A stretch of DNA of 64,000 bases, taken from contig CAWBPL010000002.1 of assembly GCA_963790805.1 (NCBI GenBank), positions 892,860 through 956,859 on the forward strand, read 5' to 3'. Positions 4,350 to 23,210 of this stretch are shown here, in pieces. The notes under the pieces are model-generated. The model saw only the letters and a list, made by a program, of their open reading frames with translations. It did not search any database and was not told where the DNA came from. Source of the DNA: Candidatus Gottesmanbacteria bacterium (GTDB lineage Bacteria > Patescibacteriota > Microgenomatia > UBA10105 > UBA927). The translations under genes and the position numbers were made by a program. Position 1 is the stretch's first letter, and each line of letters opens with the position of its first letter.

Positions 4350-6134
4350 TTATTTAACCGTTACGCTCTTTGCCAAGTTTCTCGGCATATCCGGATCAAA
4401 TCCTCGCGCAAGCGTTAAATAATATGCCAGAAGTTGGGCGACCACAACGTTGGGTATGATCGTTGCTTCTTTTGCATCTTCGACGTGTATATATTCGTCA
4501 AAGATTCCGTGCGGCGTATGCGAAATTCCGATTATATATCCGCCCCGCGCTTTCATTTCCATGACACCCGCGAGATTTGCCCCGTACGTTTCATCATCGG
4601 GCAAAAACGCGATACACGGTGTGCCGCTCGTAACAAGCGCGAGCGGGCCGTGTTTCAGTTCTCCCGCCGCAAGTCCTTCCGCATGGATATAGCTGATTTC
4701 TTTGATCTTAAGCGCTGTCTCCAGAGCCGTCGGATAGGAAAGTCCGCGTCCGATGACATAGATATGCTCTTTGGATTTGAGTGTCTGGGCGAGATTTTTC
4801 AGCTGCTTCACGCTTTTATCTGAAAGCACCGACTTCATGGACTTGACTGCCATCGTAAGCACACGGGATCCCTCAGCTGGATTCCCTGCGAGCGCATATG
4901 CAAGCATCGTCAGGTGGGCGAGCATGCCGGTAAATACTTTGGTTGACGCAACGCCTTTTTCCGGTCCCGCACCGATAAGCATTTTTTTATCCGCCTCACG
5001 ATACAGCGTAGACCCGAGGACATTGACGAGCGCCACAATAACTGCCTTTTTTTCCTTCGCTTTTTTTACGGACTCAAGTATATCCATGGTTTCACCGGAT
5101 TGCGAAATGGCGACTACAAGACTTTGCTGTGTCAAAAAATCCAGATGATATCCAAATTCGCTGCCGATGGCCACGTTTACGTGTTCACCCGCGATTTTGG
5201 AGAATAAATATTCTCCTGCAATTGCCGCATACGACGCCGTGCCGCATCCGACGAGATAAATGTGTTTTAACGTTTTCATGACATCCGCCATTTTTTGGGC
5301 CTGTCCTAGAGCTGATGCTGCAATATCAGCAACGACTCCGGGTTGCTCGTATATTTCTTTGAGCATGAAATACGGGTAATCTCCTTTTTCCACCTGCGTC
5401 TGCGACCACGTCAACAATTGTTTTTTGGGCCGGATGCGCTCGCCGGTTCTGGCATTGAAAATCATGACACCTTTTTGCGAGACTAAGGCCATCTCATCGT
5501 CTTCAAGAAAATGAACCTGCTTTGTATATGGTAAAAGGGCTGCAGCATCGCTTGCCAGAAAATTCTCAGTATCACCAAATCCGACAACGAGCGGTGACCC
5601 GTTTCTGACCGCGACAAATTGCTTATTCGTGGTATTCATGACTATGAACGCGTTTAATCCCTTCATTTCATTAAAAGCTTTTTGTACTGCTTTGCTAAAG
5701 AGCATGGTTTTGGCGTATTCCTCGATAAGGTGTACGGCCACTTCAGTATCGGTTTGGGATATAAATTTGTGCCCCTTCTTAAGGAGTCTCGCCTTAAGTT
5801 CCTGATAATTTTCTAAGATTCCGTTATGAATAATGGCAATTTTGCCGGTACAGTCGAGGTGCGGATGAGCGTTGATATCACTGACACCTCCATGGGTAGC
5901 CCAACGGGTGTGCCCGAATGCAAATGTGCTTTTGGGCATATCCAATACAGACGCTGTACCGATTTTGCCGGTCATTTTCTTTACGACAATTTTTACTTCT
6001 TCTTTGCCCTTCACTTCGGGAACAGCCGCGATGCCCCAGCTGTCATAACCCCGATACTCGAGATCTTTAAGACCGGCAAGCACGATCGATGTTGCCTTAT
6101 TTGACGGGCCGACGTATCCAAAAATACCACACAT
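4350..6134 (-). CDS. glmS: Glutamine--fructose-6-phosphate aminotransferase (isomerizing)
   Basis: N-terminal MCGIFGYVG (Ntn amidotransferase Cys), two SIS domains, and a C-terminal ..LAKSVTVK tail, in 594 aa. Confidence 0.97.
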   Translation of the reverse strand: MCGIFGYVGPSNKATSIVLAGLKDLEYRGYDSWGIAAVPEVKGKEEVKIVVKKMTGKIGTASVLDMPKSTFAFGHTRWATHGGVSDINAHPHLDCTGKIAIIHNGILENYQELKARLLKKGHKFISQTDTEVAVHLIEEYAKTMLFSKAVQKAFNEMKGLNAFIVMNTTNKQFVAVRNGSPLVVGFGDTENFLASDAAALLPYTKQVHFLEDDEMALVSQKGVMIFNARTGERIRPKKQLLTWSQTQVEKGDYPYFMLKEIYEQPGVVADIAASALGQAQKMADVMKTLKHIYLVGCGTASYAAIAGEYLFSKIAGEHVNVAIGSEFGYHLDFLTQQSLVVAISQSGETMDILESVKKAKEKKAVIVALVNVLGSTLYREADKKMLIGAGPEKGVASTKVFTGMLAHLTMLAYALAGNPAEGSRVLTMAVKSMKSVLSDKSVKQLKNLAQTLKSKEHIYVIGRGLSYPTALETALKIKEISYIHAEGLAAGELKHGPLALVTSGTPCIAFLPDDETYGANLAGVMEMKARGGYIIGISHTPHGIFDEYIHVEDAKEATIIPNVVVAQLLAYYLTLARGFDPDMPRNLAKSVTVK

Positions 6135-6184: not shown

Positions 6185-6390
6185 GCGAACTCAGCTCCTG
6201 ACGATTTGTGTCCTGTTTTTCAAGGTTTTTCTCGTCCGGATTGCGGTAGAGAGTGCTACCGAAGGGTACCCGCAGATTATCCGATAAACCCTTTCCTCGT
6301 ATCCCCGATTTAATCGGGGCCACACGCTTAACTTTTCCAATTTCGCTTCTTGTTAAAGACCTCCGCATGCGTATAGTACGGCGCTTCAGT
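6185..6390 (-). promoter_or_regulatory. glmS ribozyme (GlcN6P-activated self-cleaving riboswitch) in the glmS 5' UTR
   Basis: The minus strand reads ..A|GCGCCGUAC..GGGGAUACGAGGAAAGGGUUUAUCGGAUAAUCUGCGGGUACCC..CUACCGCAAUCCGGACGAG... It contains the cleavage-site AGCGCC (6385-6380) and the conserved core ACGAGG..GGUUUAUCG..CGG..CCGCAA, directly upstream of glmS. Confidence 0.85.
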
Positions 6391-19476: not shown

Positions 19477-19509
19477 CGGCGAATGTTGCATGTCATACTG
19501 TAGTAAGTA

Positions 19510-20301
19510 ATGCGGAATAATTTTGTCGATAACCTCATTTGGATTATTCTTTTTATTCTGTTAGTGCCCAGCGGTCTCGTCATTGCCTCATGGAATAGTC
19601 TCCCTGGAAGCCATTTGTATGCCATGAAAATTGCAGCGGAAAATGTATTATTGGCGCTCGCCCCGACTCAGCAGGCGAAAGGAGAACTAGAAGTAGCCTA
19701 TACCGAGCGCCGTTTTTCAGAGGCAACGACGCTTCTTAACAACGGTTCTTCGGTTGAGGGATTAGCGAATTTTAGGTCGCAGGCAGAGGCCGCGAAAGAA
19801 GCTATACAAAAAGCGCCGCCGGGAGCAGCGAGAAACCAATTGGCGCAAAAATATATTTTATCTCTTGAAAACGCTTCCGCACAACTGGAACAACAAAAAC
19901 AAACGTACGCATATAATCGGACAACCGGCGTAAATAGTCAGCAGCCGGCAACCAATCAGGCGCCAACGAATAATCAGGCGCCTGTCATTAACGAACAGCG
20001 GGTTGTACAGGTTATAAACAATAATACGACAACATATATCTATGTGACCCCGACACCTGCGCAAAATACCACAGATTCGTCAAGCAACGTTAGCTCTGCA
20101 ATCGATCAGACCCAAGGGGATATAAATACGATTATAGGTGACCTTAACGGAACAGATTCAACACAATCAATCCCGTCAGTACCTACGATAACGGCACCAC
20201 CCCCAGTGATGCCAACGGTCTCTGCGGGTGGCCACAAACCATCAAATTACATACTAAAGACGTATGATTATGATTTAAATAACACGGGAAAACATAATTG
20301 A
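19510..20301 (+). CDS. Hypothetical membrane-anchored protein with a helical domain and a Q/T/N-rich low-complexity tail
   Basis: N-terminal TM (LIWIILFILLVPSGLVIA), a helical region reminiscent of DUF5667-type CPR proteins, and a low-complexity C-terminus. Confidence 0.5.
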   Translation: MRNNFVDNLIWIILFILLVPSGLVIASWNSLPGSHLYAMKIAAENVLLALAPTQQAKGELEVAYTERRFSEATTLLNNGSSVEGLANFRSQAEAAKEAIQKAPPGAARNQLAQKYILSLENASAQLEQQKQTYAYNRTTGVNSQQPATNQAPTNNQAPVINEQRVVQVINNNTTTYIYVTPTPAQNTTDSSSNVSSAIDQTQGDINTIIGDLNGTDSTQSIPSVPTITAPPPVMPTVSAGGHKPSNYILKTYDYDLNNTGKHN

Positions 20302-20324
20302 ACGGATAATTCCAGAACGGGAAA

Positions 20325-20353
20325 TTGACAGATTCGTGCGTTGTGACTATACT
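20325..20353 (+). promoter_or_regulatory. Consensus sigma70 promoter of the T-box leader
   Basis: TTGACA (20325-20330), a 17-nt spacer, then TATACT (20348-20353). Confidence 0.6.
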
Positions 20354-20359
20354 AATATC

Positions 20360-20527
20360 GAAAAGCGTTAAGAGTTCCGAATACCGAACGGAACGAGCTT
20401 CCCGATTAAGAATCGGGACGGGTAAGCCCGTAACAGCAGTAAACGAGAAAAAAGTAAGGTGGTACCGCGAGTATCCCTCGCCCTTACATATTAACGTGAG
20501 TTGATATGTGACGGGAGGGATTTTTTT
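20360..20527 (+). promoter_or_regulatory. T-box riboswitch leader (probable tRNA-Pro specificity) with a truncated Stem I and an intrinsic terminator
   Basis: The conserved T-box AAGGUGGUACCGCG lies at 20456-20469. A short Stem I hairpin GUUCCG/CGGAAC (20374-20394) carries the loop AAUACCGAA. Stem II is at 20400-20418 and a small hairpin at 20419-20430. A long terminator stem (~20474-20520) is followed by T7 (20521-20527). Confidence 0.85.
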
Positions 20528-20863
20528 ATGGCAACATATGATGATTTTAAAAAAGTTGATATCCGTGTAGGAAAAATTATTGCTGTTGATGATTTTCCAG
20601 AGGCACGAAAACCCGCGTATAAATTAACGATAGATTTCGGGATTGAGATTGGTGAGAAACGAAGTAGCGCTCAGTTGGTTAAACAGTACAAAAAAGAAGA
20701 GCTTGTTGGAAAACTGGTTTTGGGCGTTGTCAATTTCCCGCCGCGGCAAATCGGCCCGTTTTTGTCCGAAGTCCTGACATTGGGCGTGCCGGACGCGGAT
20801 GGTGAGTGCATCCTCATCGTCCCCGATACGAAAGATGCTATTATTGGAGGGAGACTTTATTAA
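20528..20863 (+). CDS. tRNA-binding domain protein (CsaA/Trbp111/EMAP-II-like OB fold)
   Basis: DFKKVDIRVGKIIAVDDFPEARKPAYKLTIDFG..; ..LVLGVVNFPPRQIGPFLSEVLTLG.. is typical of CsaA-type tRNA-binding domains. Confidence 0.8.
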   Translation: MATYDDFKKVDIRVGKIIAVDDFPEARKPAYKLTIDFGIEIGEKRSSAQLVKQYKKEELVGKLVLGVVNFPPRQIGPFLSEVLTLGVPDADGECILIVPDTKDAIIGGRLY

Positions 20864-20873
20864 AAGGAGATCT

Positions 20874-22322
20874 ATGCAACAACAATTTAACAAAAAGGAA
20901 TTAAAGAAAAAAAGTGAAAACCTTTCGGAGTGGTATACCGACGTTATTCTCAAAGCTGAGCTTGCGGATTACGCCCCAGTCAAAGGAACTATGGTCATTA
21001 GGCCGTACGGGTATGCGATCTGGGAAAAAGTACAGGAAGCCTTTAACGCGATGATTCATGCCAAAGGCGTTGAAAATGCGTATTTTCCTCTGTTTATCCC
21101 GCATTCGCTTCTTGAGAAGGAAAAAGAGCATGTCGAGGGATTTTCGCCGGAACTTGCCATTGTTACAATCGGCGGCGGTGAGAAACTGAAAGATCCTCTG
21201 GTCGTCCGGCCCACGAGCGAAACCATCATGTATGCGATGTACGCCAAATGGGTGCATTCGTGGCGTGATTTACCTATCCTTATCAATCAGTGGAATAACG
21301 TCGTCCGATGGGAAAAACGGACGTACCTATTTCTTAGGACGACGGAGTTTTTGTGGCAGGAAGGACACACCGTGCACGCGACGGAGGCGGACGATATTGA
21401 TCTTGCTATGGATGCGATGGACTGGTACCGGCAGATTCTGGAGGACTATCTGGCAGTGCCCGTGTATCAGGGAATGAAAAGCGTGACAGAAAAATTTGCC
21501 GGAGCTAAAACTACTTTTACCAACGAAGCGCTCATGCCGGATGGAAAAGCGCTGCAGGGTGCGACATCCCACAATCTCGGGCAGAATTTTTCCAAAGTTT
21601 TCGGCATACAGTTCCAAAATAAAGAAGGAAAGACGGAATACGCATGGCAGACATCGTGGGGACTCTCGACACGAAGCCTCGGCGCAATGTTTCTGGTACA
21701 CGGTGACGACAGCGGACTTATCATGCCGCCCAAGATTGCACCTATTCAGGTTGTGATTATGCCGATTTTGAAATCCGGCGTTGATGATAAAGCGCTGCAA
21801 GCGTATTGCGGTGAAATGAAAGAGGCGCTCACAAATGGCGGAGTCAGGGTCAAATTGGACAATCGCGAAGAGCCGAGCATCGGCAGGAGATTCAATGAAT
21901 GGGAAGTGAAAGGCGTGCCGGTTCGCTTTGAAGTCGGGTCTAAAGAACTGGCTGACAGAAGCGTGACGATTGTGCGCCGTGATACCGGCGAAAAAACGGT
22001 CATGGGCAGACAGGAGATGCTCACGGAAACCGAGAAAATTCTTAAAAATATTCAGGAGTCGCTTTTTGCGAAAGCAAAAAAATACCTTGCTGATAATACA
22101 CGTGACGCCAAGACGTATGAGGAGTTAAAACATATTATGGCAACGACGCGAGGGTTTATCAGGGCTTTCTGGTGTGAAGATGCTGAATGTGAAGCGAAAA
22201 TTAAAGAAGAAACGAAAGCGACGACGCGGTGTCTGCCGTTTGGCACAAAAGAAGAGAAGGGTGTCTGTATTCACTGCGGCAAGCCGGCCACGCACAAATG
22301 GATGTTTGCTCAGGCATATTAA
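20874..22322 (+). CDS. proS: Prolyl-tRNA synthetase, archaeal/eukaryotic-like type (no INS editing domain, C-terminal Zn domain)
   Basis: SEWYTDVILKAELADY.., class II motifs (..FLRTTEFLWQEGHT..), C-terminal CxxC..CxxC and a terminal ..AQAY. RBS AAAGGAGA precedes the ATG at 20874. Confidence 0.95.
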   Translation: MQQQFNKKELKKKSENLSEWYTDVILKAELADYAPVKGTMVIRPYGYAIWEKVQEAFNAMIHAKGVENAYFPLFIPHSLLEKEKEHVEGFSPELAIVTIGGGEKLKDPLVVRPTSETIMYAMYAKWVHSWRDLPILINQWNNVVRWEKRTYLFLRTTEFLWQEGHTVHATEADDIDLAMDAMDWYRQILEDYLAVPVYQGMKSVTEKFAGAKTTFTNEALMPDGKALQGATSHNLGQNFSKVFGIQFQNKEGKTEYAWQTSWGLSTRSLGAMFLVHGDDSGLIMPPKIAPIQVVIMPILKSGVDDKALQAYCGEMKEALTNGGVRVKLDNREEPSIGRRFNEWEVKGVPVRFEVGSKELADRSVTIVRRDTGEKTVMGRQEMLTETEKILKNIQESLFAKAKKYLADNTRDAKTYEELKHIMATTRGFIRAFWCEDAECEAKIKEETKATTRCLPFGTKEEKGVCIHCGKPATHKWMFAQAY

Positions 22323-22376
22323 CGCGCACCCATCAACTTGTGTAAAGAATATCGAGGCGATATACTTCAAAAGCCT

Positions 22377-23210
22377 ATGAAAACGATCGTTGCCCACATC
22401 GGCCCTGATCTTGACGCCATAACAAGCATCTGGCTGGTGAAAATGTTTTTCGCCGGTTGGGAAGAAGCTTCTTTGGCCTTTGTGCCTGCCGGCAAAACGC
22501 TTGAAGGCAAGCCGCCTGACGATAATCCCGAGATACTGCATGTGGATACGGGATTCGGGAAATTTGATCATCACCAGACCGATGCCGACACCTGTGCATC
22601 GCTTCTTGTCTATGAGGAGATTAAAAAAACGCGGGGCACAGATCATGCGCTTGAGCGTCTCGTCATGATTGTCAACGACGTCGATCATTTCCGCGAAGTG
22701 TTTTATCCTAATCCTGTTGCGGATTTCTGGGACTTCGGATTGGTTTCCCAAATCGACGGATGGCGTCTTATGTACGCCGACAACCCCATTAAAATTGTTG
22801 AGCTTGGTATGCAGGCGCTGGACGGCATTTACAAAATGTTTCAAAATAAAGTCTGGGCGGAAAAAGAGTTGAAGGAAAAAGGCGTGGCGTTTGAAACGAA
22901 GTGGGGTAAAGGAATCGGTGTGGAAACGCCGAACGATGAAGTCGTCCACCTCGCGCAAAAAATGGGCTATGTGGTAGCCGTTCGCAAAGATCCGAAAAAA
23001 GGATATCTTCGCATTAAAGCCCTGCCCAAAAAAGAGATAGATCTTGAGCCGGTCTACAATGAGCTGAAAAAACAGGAGCCCGATGCGACATGGTTTTTGC
23101 ACGCAAGCCACCACATGGTGTTAAATGGCAGCAGTAAAAATCCCGACATGCGTCCGACAAAGAAAACATTGCAACAAATTATTGATGTTATAAAAAAAGT
23201 ATGCATATAA
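22377..23210 (+). CDS. DHH-motif phosphoesterase-like protein
   Basis: IVAHIGPDLDAITSIW (DxD) and GKFDHHQTD (DHH) motifs. TTGTGT-17-TATACT at 22338-22366 gives a very short leader. Confidence 0.55.
   Translation: MKTIVAHIGPDLDAITSIWLVKMFFAGWEEASLAFVPAGKTLEGKPPDDNPEILHVDTGFGKFDHHQTDADTCASLLVYEEIKKTRGTDHALERLVMIVNDVDHFREVFYPNPVADFWDFGLVSQIDGWRLMYADNPIKIVELGMQALDGIYKMFQNKVWAEKELKEKGVAFETKWGKGIGVETPNDEVVHLAQKMGYVVAVRKDPKKGYLRIKALPKKEIDLEPVYNELKKQEPDATWFLHASHHMVLNGSSKNPDMRPTKKTLQQIIDVIKKVCI

Follow-up and report, generated by a model that had tools for sequence, protein, structure and literature searches.

T-box riboswitches with an ultrashort Stem I, the class II or translational type, were reportedly described from actinobacterial ileS leaders by Sherwood, Grundy and Henkin in 2015. 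Elements of this kind are translational and occur mostly upstream of actinobacterial ileS, and structures have been solved (6UFG, 6UFM; PMC7583486). Transcriptional T-boxes generally require a long Stem I with a double T-loop elbow platform, which serves fast tRNA capture (PMC7583486). According to the same review, the S-turn of Stem II provides a string of five purines that clamps the codon-anticodon helix, Stem III, along with the purines that flank it, is indispensable for binding of the tRNA 3' end, and steric sensing of the aminoacyl group falls primarily to a G·U pair at the end of helix A2 (PMC7583486). Here, we analysed a leader located upstream of csaA and proS in a stretch of 64,000 nt from a Candidatus Gottesmanbacteria bacterium (assembly GCA_963790805.1, contig CAWBPL010000002.1, positions 892,860 to 956,859 of the forward strand). 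This whole stretch is called the window, and all positions given for it are counted from its first nucleotide.

The leader combines the anatomy of a T-box with covarying helices, a codon that matches the regulated gene and terminators that are conserved in its relatives. Judged from these features of the sequence, it very probably works as a proline-specific T-box and attenuates transcription of the csaA-proS operon in a Candidatus Gottesmanbacteria-like genome (Microgenomates, Candidate Phyla Radiation; CPR). A T-box with an ultrashort Stem I had already been proposed for this site in an initial annotation made from the letters of the DNA.

Leader architecture

The promoter and leader together span positions 20325-20527 and comprise the following features:

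20325..20353, + strand: sigma-70-type promoter, with the −35 box TTGACA at 20325-20330, a 17-nt spacer and the −10 box TATACT at 20348-20353
20364..20399, + strand: ultrashort Stem I, in which all pairs covary
20380..20388, + strand: Specifier Loop, which is the 9-nt terminal loop of Stem I (AAUACCGAA), with CCG at 20384-20386 and the purine A20387 next to it
20401..20417, + strand: Stem II, a 5-bp hairpin (20401-20405 with 20413-20417) with the 7-nt loop UUAAGAA; five of five pairs covary
20418..20437, + strand: Stem IIA/B pseudoknot, composed of IIA (ACGG/CCGU) and IIB; IIB covaries in divergent members
20432..20453, + strand: purine-rich linker of 22 nt (AACAGCAGUAAACGAGAAAAAA) at the usual site of Stem III, without a helix
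20454..20487, + strand: antiterminator, composed of A1 (20454-20459 with 20482-20487) and A2 (20467-20471 with 20477-20481)
20474..20527, + strand: intrinsic terminator, with a hairpin of about 20 bp at 20474-20520 (−26.8 kcal/mol) and seven U at 20521-20527

All sequence features listed in the initial annotation were recovered within 1-2 nt of the coordinates it had given. The consensus promoter it had named, TTGACA-17-TATACT, matches the consensus at 11 of 12 positions and is the top-scoring site between positions 19500 and 23500, a region in which matches of at least 9/12 are no commoner than in shuffled sequences. Transcription would start near position 20360, about 7 nt 3' of TATACT, which yields a leader of about 168 nt ending at 20527. 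When folded alone, the leader forms three 5' hairpins and a long 3' hairpin, with a minimum free energy of −57.1 kcal/mol (z = −4.0 compared to shuffled sequences).

Stem I consists of a base helix of 3 bp (AGC/GCU, 20364-20366 with 20397-20399), an asymmetric internal loop (20367-20373 and 20395-20396) and a hairpin of 6 bp (20374-20379 with 20389-20394). The AG bulge and the distal loop are absent. The 6-bp hairpin with its 9-nt loop at 20374-20394 is exactly as first annotated. The internal loop is possibly a non-canonical, K-turn-like element: GA at 20372-20373 faces GA at 20395-20396, and the bulge is 5 nt long, compared to the 3 nt of a standard K-turn. In the same region, the helix of many proline relatives is uninterrupted apart from a 2-nt bulge on the 3' side, and the aspartate leaders have a canonical GAU-GA/GA K-turn.

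Stem II and the small hairpin that had been noted behind it were found at 20401-20417 and 20418-20431, respectively. The small hairpin is Stem IIA, with a helix of 20418-20421 and 20428-20431 and the loop GUAAGC. The nucleotides G20426-C20427 of this loop are able to pair with G20436-C20437 as Stem IIB.

The conserved 14-nt T-box sequence (AGGGUGGNACCGCG), which places a 7-nt bulge UGGNACC between A1 and A2, is present as AAGGUGGUACCGCG at 20457-20470, so that the canonical T-box claimed earlier is indeed found. The bulge itself reads UGGUACC (20460-20466), and its UGGU (20460-20463) is complementary to the 3'-ACCA end of a tRNA. The 5' arm of the terminator takes up the 3' strands of both A2 and A1 and thereby excludes the antiterminator. 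Since the antiterminator alone reaches just −12.5 kcal/mol and the terminator is far more stable, the default state of the switch is predicted to be OFF. The run of seven U directly adjoins the csaA start codon (ATG at 20528), in line with the long terminator abutting the ATG of the earlier description, and the Shine-Dalgarno sequence of csaA (GGAGG, 20514-20518) lies inside the 3' arm of the hairpin.

T-box identity and Rfam score

The Rfam T-box model RF00230 matches positions 20359-20488 with a score of 48.5 bits and an E-value of 7.8e-10, obtained in a local search of 351 nt (20250-20600) with permissive thresholds. The alignment retains the base of Stem I, Stem II, IIA and the antiterminator. 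In it, 84 Stem I positions of the model are replaced by 21 nt, and the S-turn region and the Stem III positions are deleted. The covariance-model match on which the initial annotation had made its proposal depend was thus obtained, at a score that falls below the gathering score of 93 bits. A scan of the whole window against Rfam at the gathering threshold did not list a T-box and returned a glmS ribozyme as its sole match. Because 48.5 bits are below the gathering score, routine annotation misses the element.

A 14-nt T-box sequence, a mutually exclusive and more stable terminator that reuses the 3' strand of the antiterminator, and a codon that fits the regulated gene and is followed by a purine (CCG-A, 20384-20387) are all present. 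At the level of the sequence, the leader is a real T-box with an ultrashort Stem I, beyond what chance would produce.

Conservation and covariation

ProRS relatives sharing 65-78% identity were found in Candidatus Gottesmanbacteria and Patescibacteria metagenome-assembled genomes (MAGs; one-genome-per-species contigs), which assigns the window to a CPR bacterium of the Microgenomates group. About 49 related CPR-type loci were scanned for a leader upstream of proS, for which a family covariance model was built from nine orthologous leaders. The model matched such a leader in 20 of these loci and in the window. Metagenomes were scanned with a family-specific pattern composed of the Stem II loop, IIA and the T-box, with Stem I not forming part of it; this yielded 32 loci, of which 31 were also matched by the family model. 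About 45 distinct homologous leaders from Candidatus Gottesmanbacteria/Microgenomates (CPR) genomes and from metagenomes were obtained in this way. Counted from the Stem I base through the antiterminator, the family element is about 125 nt long. Of 46 distinct leaders, 34 have a promoter-like site (at least 9/12) located 5-19 nt upstream.

Covariation was examined in the 17 best genome-derived leaders and in 27 distinct metagenome leaders. In the former set, 96.9% of the cells are standard pairs and 18 of 29 pairs are changed on both sides; in the latter, 97.4% of the cells are paired and compensatory changes occur in 19 of 29 pairs. For the 17 genome-derived leaders, none of 500 shuffles reached any of the covariation measures, and when pairing partners were slid by 1-3 columns, the paired fraction was 29-44%. 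Compensatory changes affect every helix across about 45 distinct leaders, which indicates purifying selection on the structure. The initial annotation had pointed to related genomes for covariation, and at about 97% pairing, with 18 and 19 of 29 pairs compensatory, it is found there.

Examples from the Stem I hairpin are GUUCCG/CGGAAC, GCGCCG/CGGCGC and GUCCUG/CAGGAU. Stem I of eight divergent leaders (L001, L045, L087, L097, L101, L103, L105, L110) was mis-called automatically, and most of these were read by eye. The pairs of A1 and A2 are conserved or covary across the family. The consensus of the 7-nt Stem II loop is YYAAKAA. IIB pairing begins 4 nt 3' of IIA in most leaders and covaries as GC/GC, AAGC/GCUU, GAC/GUC, AUCUA/UAGAU, GCUA/UAGC and GCGA/UCGC, with GA/UC read by eye in L095.

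Specifier codon and amino acid range

The terminal loop of Stem I is 7-9 nt long in the proline leaders. All of them carry CCG, or in a few cases CCC or CCU, followed by a purine and usually by one further base before the stem. In about 40 distinct proline leaders, CCN plus purine is the sole conserved codon at this position of the loop. The initial annotation had read CCG as a proline codon and had noted UAC in the same loop: the first part of this reading stands, as the codon is conserved as CCN-R, and the second does not, as UAC is not conserved. UAC (Tyr) and ACC (Thr) were ruled out as specifiers, since the relatives show AUC, CAC, CCC or UCC at the corresponding site.

The same short Stem I design precedes genes for other amino acids. 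CUGACAA (GAC-A) is found upstream of aspS in L101 and in seven of seven independently fetched Gottesmanbacteria aspS loci (L114-L120). UCGCAA (CGC-A) precedes argS in L084 and L109, CCGCCG (CGC) precedes argH-argG in L111, and ACC-A precedes thrS in L103. Among the Asp, Thr, Arg and ArgH loci, only the Asp locus was placed taxonomically (Gottesmanbacteria/Patescibacteria). The occurrence of gene-matching codons for Asp, Arg and Thr in this design indicates that the terminal loop is the Specifier Loop. The Asp leader L119 and the Pro leader L027 derive from one MAG (GCA_016214885.1), so that a single genome has at least two such switches.

The bulge of the Asp leader L114 reads UGGC, whereas the other leaders have UGGU. 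Bacterial tRNA-Asp has G73 as discriminator base, which UGGC would fit. The Thr leader of L103 (2004-2133, − strand) seemingly has a Stem I consisting of just an 11-nt loop (ACCACUCCUGA) closed by a base helix of 3-4 bp, in which the Thr codons ACC and ACU are adjacent; this is one example and its register is uncertain.

All eight aspS loci examined (L101, L114-L120) feature a short-Stem-I Asp T-box with the canonical K-turn. About half of the AspRS homologues at these loci (624-630 aa) have a PF04073 tRNA_edit (YbaK/ProX-like) domain, which is C-terminal as judged from the L101 sequence; the others are about 460 aa long and lack it. In the window, a CysRS gene (PF01406; 34058-35485, + strand) is not matched by either T-box model. 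T-box control in this genome hence appears to be specific to particular genes.

Expression platform

Most of the distinct leaders checked have a hairpin with 5-7 U behind it, and a GC-rich hairpin with a conserved U-tract directly behind it bears the signature of an intrinsic terminator. Across the family, the start codon is found between −2 and +155 nt from the U-run. Twelve leaders (L001, L002, L006, L009, L015, L020, L041, L082, L088, L101, L110, L112) have the hairpin and U-run with the start codon 8-155 nt beyond, and in many relatives (e.g. L001, L002, L009, L015, L020, L041, L082, L101, L110, L112) a separate Shine-Dalgarno sequence lies outside the hairpin. As the U-tract is kept regardless of where translation starts, these observations argue for intrinsic termination and hence for transcription attenuation.

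The best-surviving alternative would place the element in the actinobacterial ileS class of T-boxes, acting on translation alone, with the hairpin as a sequestrator and the seven U as a spacer between the ribosome-binding site and the ATG. The layout of the window, with GGAGG at 20514-20518 inside the hairpin's 3' arm and U7 running into the ATG, is compatible with this and is common to about a dozen relatives; moreover, ultrashort Stem I elements have so far been described in translational T-boxes (PMC7583486). Display of the specifier by the terminal loop of such a Stem I is likewise a class II trait. The second class II trait, a sequestrator without an intrinsic terminator, is not found, as U7 follows the hairpin in the window. 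In addition, many leaders keep the hairpin and its 5-7 U although start codon and Shine-Dalgarno sequence lie 8-155 nt downstream and outside the hairpin, and a conserved U-tract in this position marks an intrinsic terminator. We consider the purely translational reading unlikely and prefer transcription attenuation. For leaders of the window type, occlusion of the Shine-Dalgarno sequence would be a plausible extra layer.

Two further observations concern this part of the leaders. In L006, L010, L015, L020, L021, L041, L089 and L095, the 3' arm of the terminator is a second, self-complementary copy of GGUACC, which is followed by the U-run. This copy implies that the terminator pairs with the T-box bulge itself, beyond the 3' strands of A1 and A2, and these leaders represent a second terminator design within the family. 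An insert of about 150 nt resembling a miniature inverted-repeat transposable element is located between terminator and start codon in L001 (~1160-1313), L106 and L119 (~990-1200), and possibly in L082 and L112. It is bounded by the inverted repeats CCRRGTAGTAGAATTTCGACACGC ... GTCGAAATTTCACWACYYGG, with TATG on either side, and is absent from the window.

Comparison with described T-box riboswitches

Compared to described T-boxes, the leader of the window has no long Stem I, no AG bulge, no distal loop and no double T-loop platform. Stem III is absent from the window and from 28 of 45 distinct leaders (linker of at most 30 nt), with the purine flanks being retained; the remaining leaders carry a Stem III hairpin inserted exactly at the linker point. 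With only five base pairs and the loop UUAAGAA, Stem II cannot form an S-turn in the window. Its loop keeps only the purine run, and the IIA/B pseudoknot is present. The distant members L018, L084, L097 and L111 retain a long Stem II. At the A2 junction, the window has the pair G20467-C20481 and not G·U. Among 44 distinct leaders with a short Stem I, 22 have G-C here, 19 have A-U and one has G·U. The Rfam consensus has G·U, as do Clostridial proS leaders; the Clostridial pairs were read by eye, as the automated count took the wrong A1 strand.

The initial annotation had likened the leader to the reduced actinobacterial ileS type. This likeness holds for Stem I: in both, a short Stem I close to the 5' end has the codon and its 3' purine in its terminal loop, the elbow platform is lacking, Stem II and IIA/B follow directly, and the T-box bulge and A1/A2 are the same. 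It does not extend to the remainder of the element. The actinobacterial T-boxes act by Shine-Dalgarno sequestration, whereas the CPR family has hairpin and U-tract terminators, often with the Shine-Dalgarno sequence well downstream. They have a long Stem II with S-turn and 5-purine string, in place of which the CPR family has a 5-bp hairpin with a YYAAKAA loop. They keep and often enlarge Stem III, which is missing in 28 of 45 CPR leaders. The two groups also differ in distribution, the former being found in Actinobacteria with Ile and ileS and the latter in CPR with Pro, Asp, Arg or Thr, here upstream of csaA-proS.

Class I (RF00230) T-boxes of Clostridial proS genes (L055-L079) share the terminator/antiterminator pair, the 14-nt T-box sequence and a Pro specifier followed by a purine with the CPR leaders. 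Both also have a short Stem II hairpin, which reads GCGG-CCAAUCC-CCGC in Clostridia, as well as the IIA/B pseudoknot and an AAUGAG-type purine stretch. What the leader of the window lacks, compared to those of Clostridia, is a long Stem I (with its AG bulge and distal loop), a Specifier Loop in internal position, Stem III and a G·U pair at the A2 base. The archaeal-type ProRS proteins of these Clostridia are 50-54% identical to that of the window. Based on the shared Stem II hairpin, IIA/B and purine stretch and on the related ProRS, the CPR element looks like a pared-down form of the Clostridial lineage, and a common origin of the two proS T-boxes is plausible. The loci L055-L079, from Clostridia and Bacteroidales-labelled MAG contigs, have canonical long-Stem-I proS T-boxes which, in a scan at the gathering threshold, also fell short of the 93 bits of Rfam, and their Stem II hairpin is unusually short with a CCAAUCC-type loop.

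The glyQS T-boxes, which are transcriptional like the CPR family, demonstrate that loss of modules is possible in particular lineages. Stem II is what they have lost, whereas their Stem I platform is complete and Stem III is retained. In the CPR family, the opposite modules are missing: the platform is gone and so, often, is Stem III, while a mini Stem II and the IIA/B pseudoknot remain.

Downstream genes and the role of CsaA

The two genes behind the leader are:

20528..20863, + strand: csaA-like gene, coding for a free-standing OB-fold protein of the CsaA/Trbp family with 111 aa (PF01588, TIGR02222, NF007495)
20874..22322, + strand: proS, coding for an archaeal/eukaryote-type ProRS with 482 aa (TIGR00408, 594 bits, cut-off 437; PF09180 ProRS-C_1, 75.8 bits)

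Both proteins score above their family cut-offs and are what the initial annotation had taken them for, namely a CsaA/Trbp-family protein and an archaeal-type ProRS. For the csaA-like protein, the scores are 45.9 bits with PF01588 (cut-off 27), 144.8 with TIGR02222 (119.65) and 156.3 with NF007495 (117). Its nearest solved structures are CsaA 2q2i (E 6e-36), 2nzh (2e-32) and 1gd7, followed by Trbp111 1pyb (3.5e-11). About 60-65% of the aligned residues are identical to those of Agrobacterium CsaA 2q2i, as counted from the alignment. The protein falls in the same size class as the free-standing OB-fold proteins CsaA, Trbp111 and YgjH (PF01588). Bacillus subtilis CsaA has been reported as a secretion chaperone. 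proS begins 10 nt 3' of csaA and has its own Shine-Dalgarno sequence.

In 18 of 21 genome-derived proline leaders, csaA is the first gene behind the T-box. Four loci (L001, L002, L006, L095) and all Asp, Arg and Thr leaders have the T-box without csaA. Conversely, csaA-proS occurs without a T-box in L007, L023, L024 and L040, where the upstream gene abuts and leaves no room for a leader. In the metagenome loci L087 and L088, the proline T-box and csaA precede a short ProRS of the bacterial type (412-418 aa, TIGR00409), which apparently lacks the insertion/editing domain. Judged from these two loci, the synthetase was swapped while csaA and the leader stayed, and csaA tracks proS. No CsaA-ProRS fusion was found in the best 120 of 8000 CsaA homologues, all of which are single-domain proteins of about 111 aa.

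According to the initial annotation, the CsaA-like protein could supply tRNA contacts in trans. As a trans-acting cofactor of the riboswitch, it would hold the tRNA at the elbow or elsewhere and replace the distal platform of Stem I. Its membership in a tRNA-binding OB-fold family and its first place behind most of the genome-derived proline leaders speak for such a role. On the other hand, a Trbp111-tRNA co-crystal structure (2024) and mutagenesis revealed that only the 3'-terminal CA is bound and that the elbow is not involved (PMC11286949). Short-Stem-I T-boxes without csaA in cis and csaA-proS operons without a T-box, as listed above, are also at odds with this role, and a cofactor that needs the switch to be ON for its own synthesis would create a bootstrap loop. 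The proposal is thus not supported, and we regard a cofactor role as very improbable. The 3' end bound by Trbp111 is the end that has to pair with the T-box bulge, which makes competition likelier than help.

CsaA most probably acts as a tRNA-3'-end-binding partner of ProRS or tRNA-Pro that would be co-induced with ProRS, and not as a riboswitch cofactor. If it binds free 3'-CCA ends, it could, as a matter of speculation, damp the switch by competing for uncharged tRNA. To our knowledge, neither control by a T-box nor a conserved operon with proS has been reported for any member of the CsaA/Trbp family.

A gene for a DHH-like protein of 277-290 aa (HIGPDLDAITS ... DHHQTD) is located behind proS at 22338-23210 (+ strand), with a probable start near 22377. 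No NCBIfam match was obtained for this protein, and its Pfam match is sub-threshold only. No terminator-like site was found between proS and this gene. This gene is also found behind proS in L087, L088, L095, L100 and L104, so that it may belong to the operon.

Elsewhere in the window, the full-length glmS ribozyme (RF00234) is located at 6187-6339 (− strand; 65.8 bits, E 6.9e-13), directly upstream of a GlmS-type gene with GATase and SIS domains (4350-6134, − strand). It is a second classic RNA regulator of Gram-positive style in this CPR window.

Proposed mechanism and its weighing

By analogy with the established T-box mechanism, the leader would bind tRNA, sense its charging and control termination as follows. 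Transcription is predicted to start at the site about 7 nt 3' of the −10 box, and the nascent leader would fold a compact anticodon-binding domain from Stem I, the 5-bp Stem II and the IIA/B pseudoknot. The AAGAA of the Stem II loop probably substitutes for the purine string of the S-turn. The anticodon of tRNA-Pro would pair with CCG at 20384-20386. If the tRNA is uncharged, its 3'-ACCA would pair with UGGU at 20460-20463 and stabilise the weak antiterminator, allowing RNA polymerase to read into csaA and proS. If the tRNA is charged or absent, the terminator of −26.8 kcal/mol with its U7 would form, and transcription would stop just before the ATG. Because the ribosome-binding site of csaA lies in the 3' arm of the terminator, full-length RNA that has refolded would also be silenced at translation, as a secondary layer.

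Several points weigh against this interpretation. The elbow platform and Stem III, both absent here, are required according to the published view (PMC7583486). The Rfam score of the window leader is sub-threshold, and a scan of 20 loci (relatives and Clostridial proS T-boxes) at the gathering threshold gave no T-box match. Alignments made with a covariance model lean to the structure of the model, and the metagenome set was preselected by a pattern that contains Stem II, IIA and the T-box. A search for tRNA genes found none within the window, and a scan of 81 CPR and metagenome loci found a single tRNA-Met and no tRNA-Pro. Finally, the window copy taken alone, with its Shine-Dalgarno sequence in the hairpin and U7 at the ATG, fits a translational switch too.

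The least credible of the alternatives are that a canonical (Clostridia-like) proS T-box has decayed into this leader, losing Stem I and Stem III and leaving just a constitutive or leaky terminator, or that the leader senses another tRNA (Tyr with UAC, Thr with ACC): canonical modules are indeed missing, many sister genomes have proS without any leader, and UAC and ACC also lie within the window loop, but every helix shows compensatory changes across the distinct leaders, the T-box bulge and the specifier with its purine are invariant in position, CCN is conserved while UAC and ACC are not, and the same minimal design stands with matching codons before aspS, argS, argHG and thrS. Taken together, a proline-specific, transcription-attenuating T-box remains our preferred interpretation.

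A wider proposal, which we regard as possible but doubtful, is that a CPR class of transcriptional T-boxes of about 125 nt senses tRNA identity and charging without elbow platform, S-turn, Stem III and G·U pair. In the proline version, the 3'-CCA-binding CsaA would compete with the riboswitch or hand the tRNA over to ProRS, amounting to a protein-RNA feedback loop on uncharged tRNA-Pro.

Relation to the literature and significance

In the open-access literature searched, no paper or preprint was found that joins T-boxes with the Candidate Phyla Radiation or Patescibacteria. Top-ranked open-access papers on Microgenomates, Parcubacteria or Saccharibacteria do not mention a T-box riboswitch, and nothing relevant was found in open-access literature on a truncated Stem I or a proS specifier. 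In TBDB, the class II model was run only on Actinobacteria and on class I matches with a truncated Stem I. A minimal, apparently transcriptional T-box family of the CPR is therefore apparently undescribed.

The family conflicts with review statements on the elbow platform and Stem III (PMC7583486), yet it is conserved, covarying, matched in its codons and equipped with terminators. If it works as proposed, it would include the smallest natural T-box known and would constitute a natural test of which modules are needed for tRNA recognition and the sensing of aminoacylation. It could be of use in structural work and in the engineering of compact tRNA-responsive switches. The pairing of csaA with proS across two unrelated types of ProRS points to an unstudied link between CsaA/Trbp proteins and the charging of proline tRNA. 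For the organisms themselves, the finding means that CPR/Patescibacteria would use riboswitch control of aminoacyl-tRNA synthetase genes that is missed by standard Rfam annotation.

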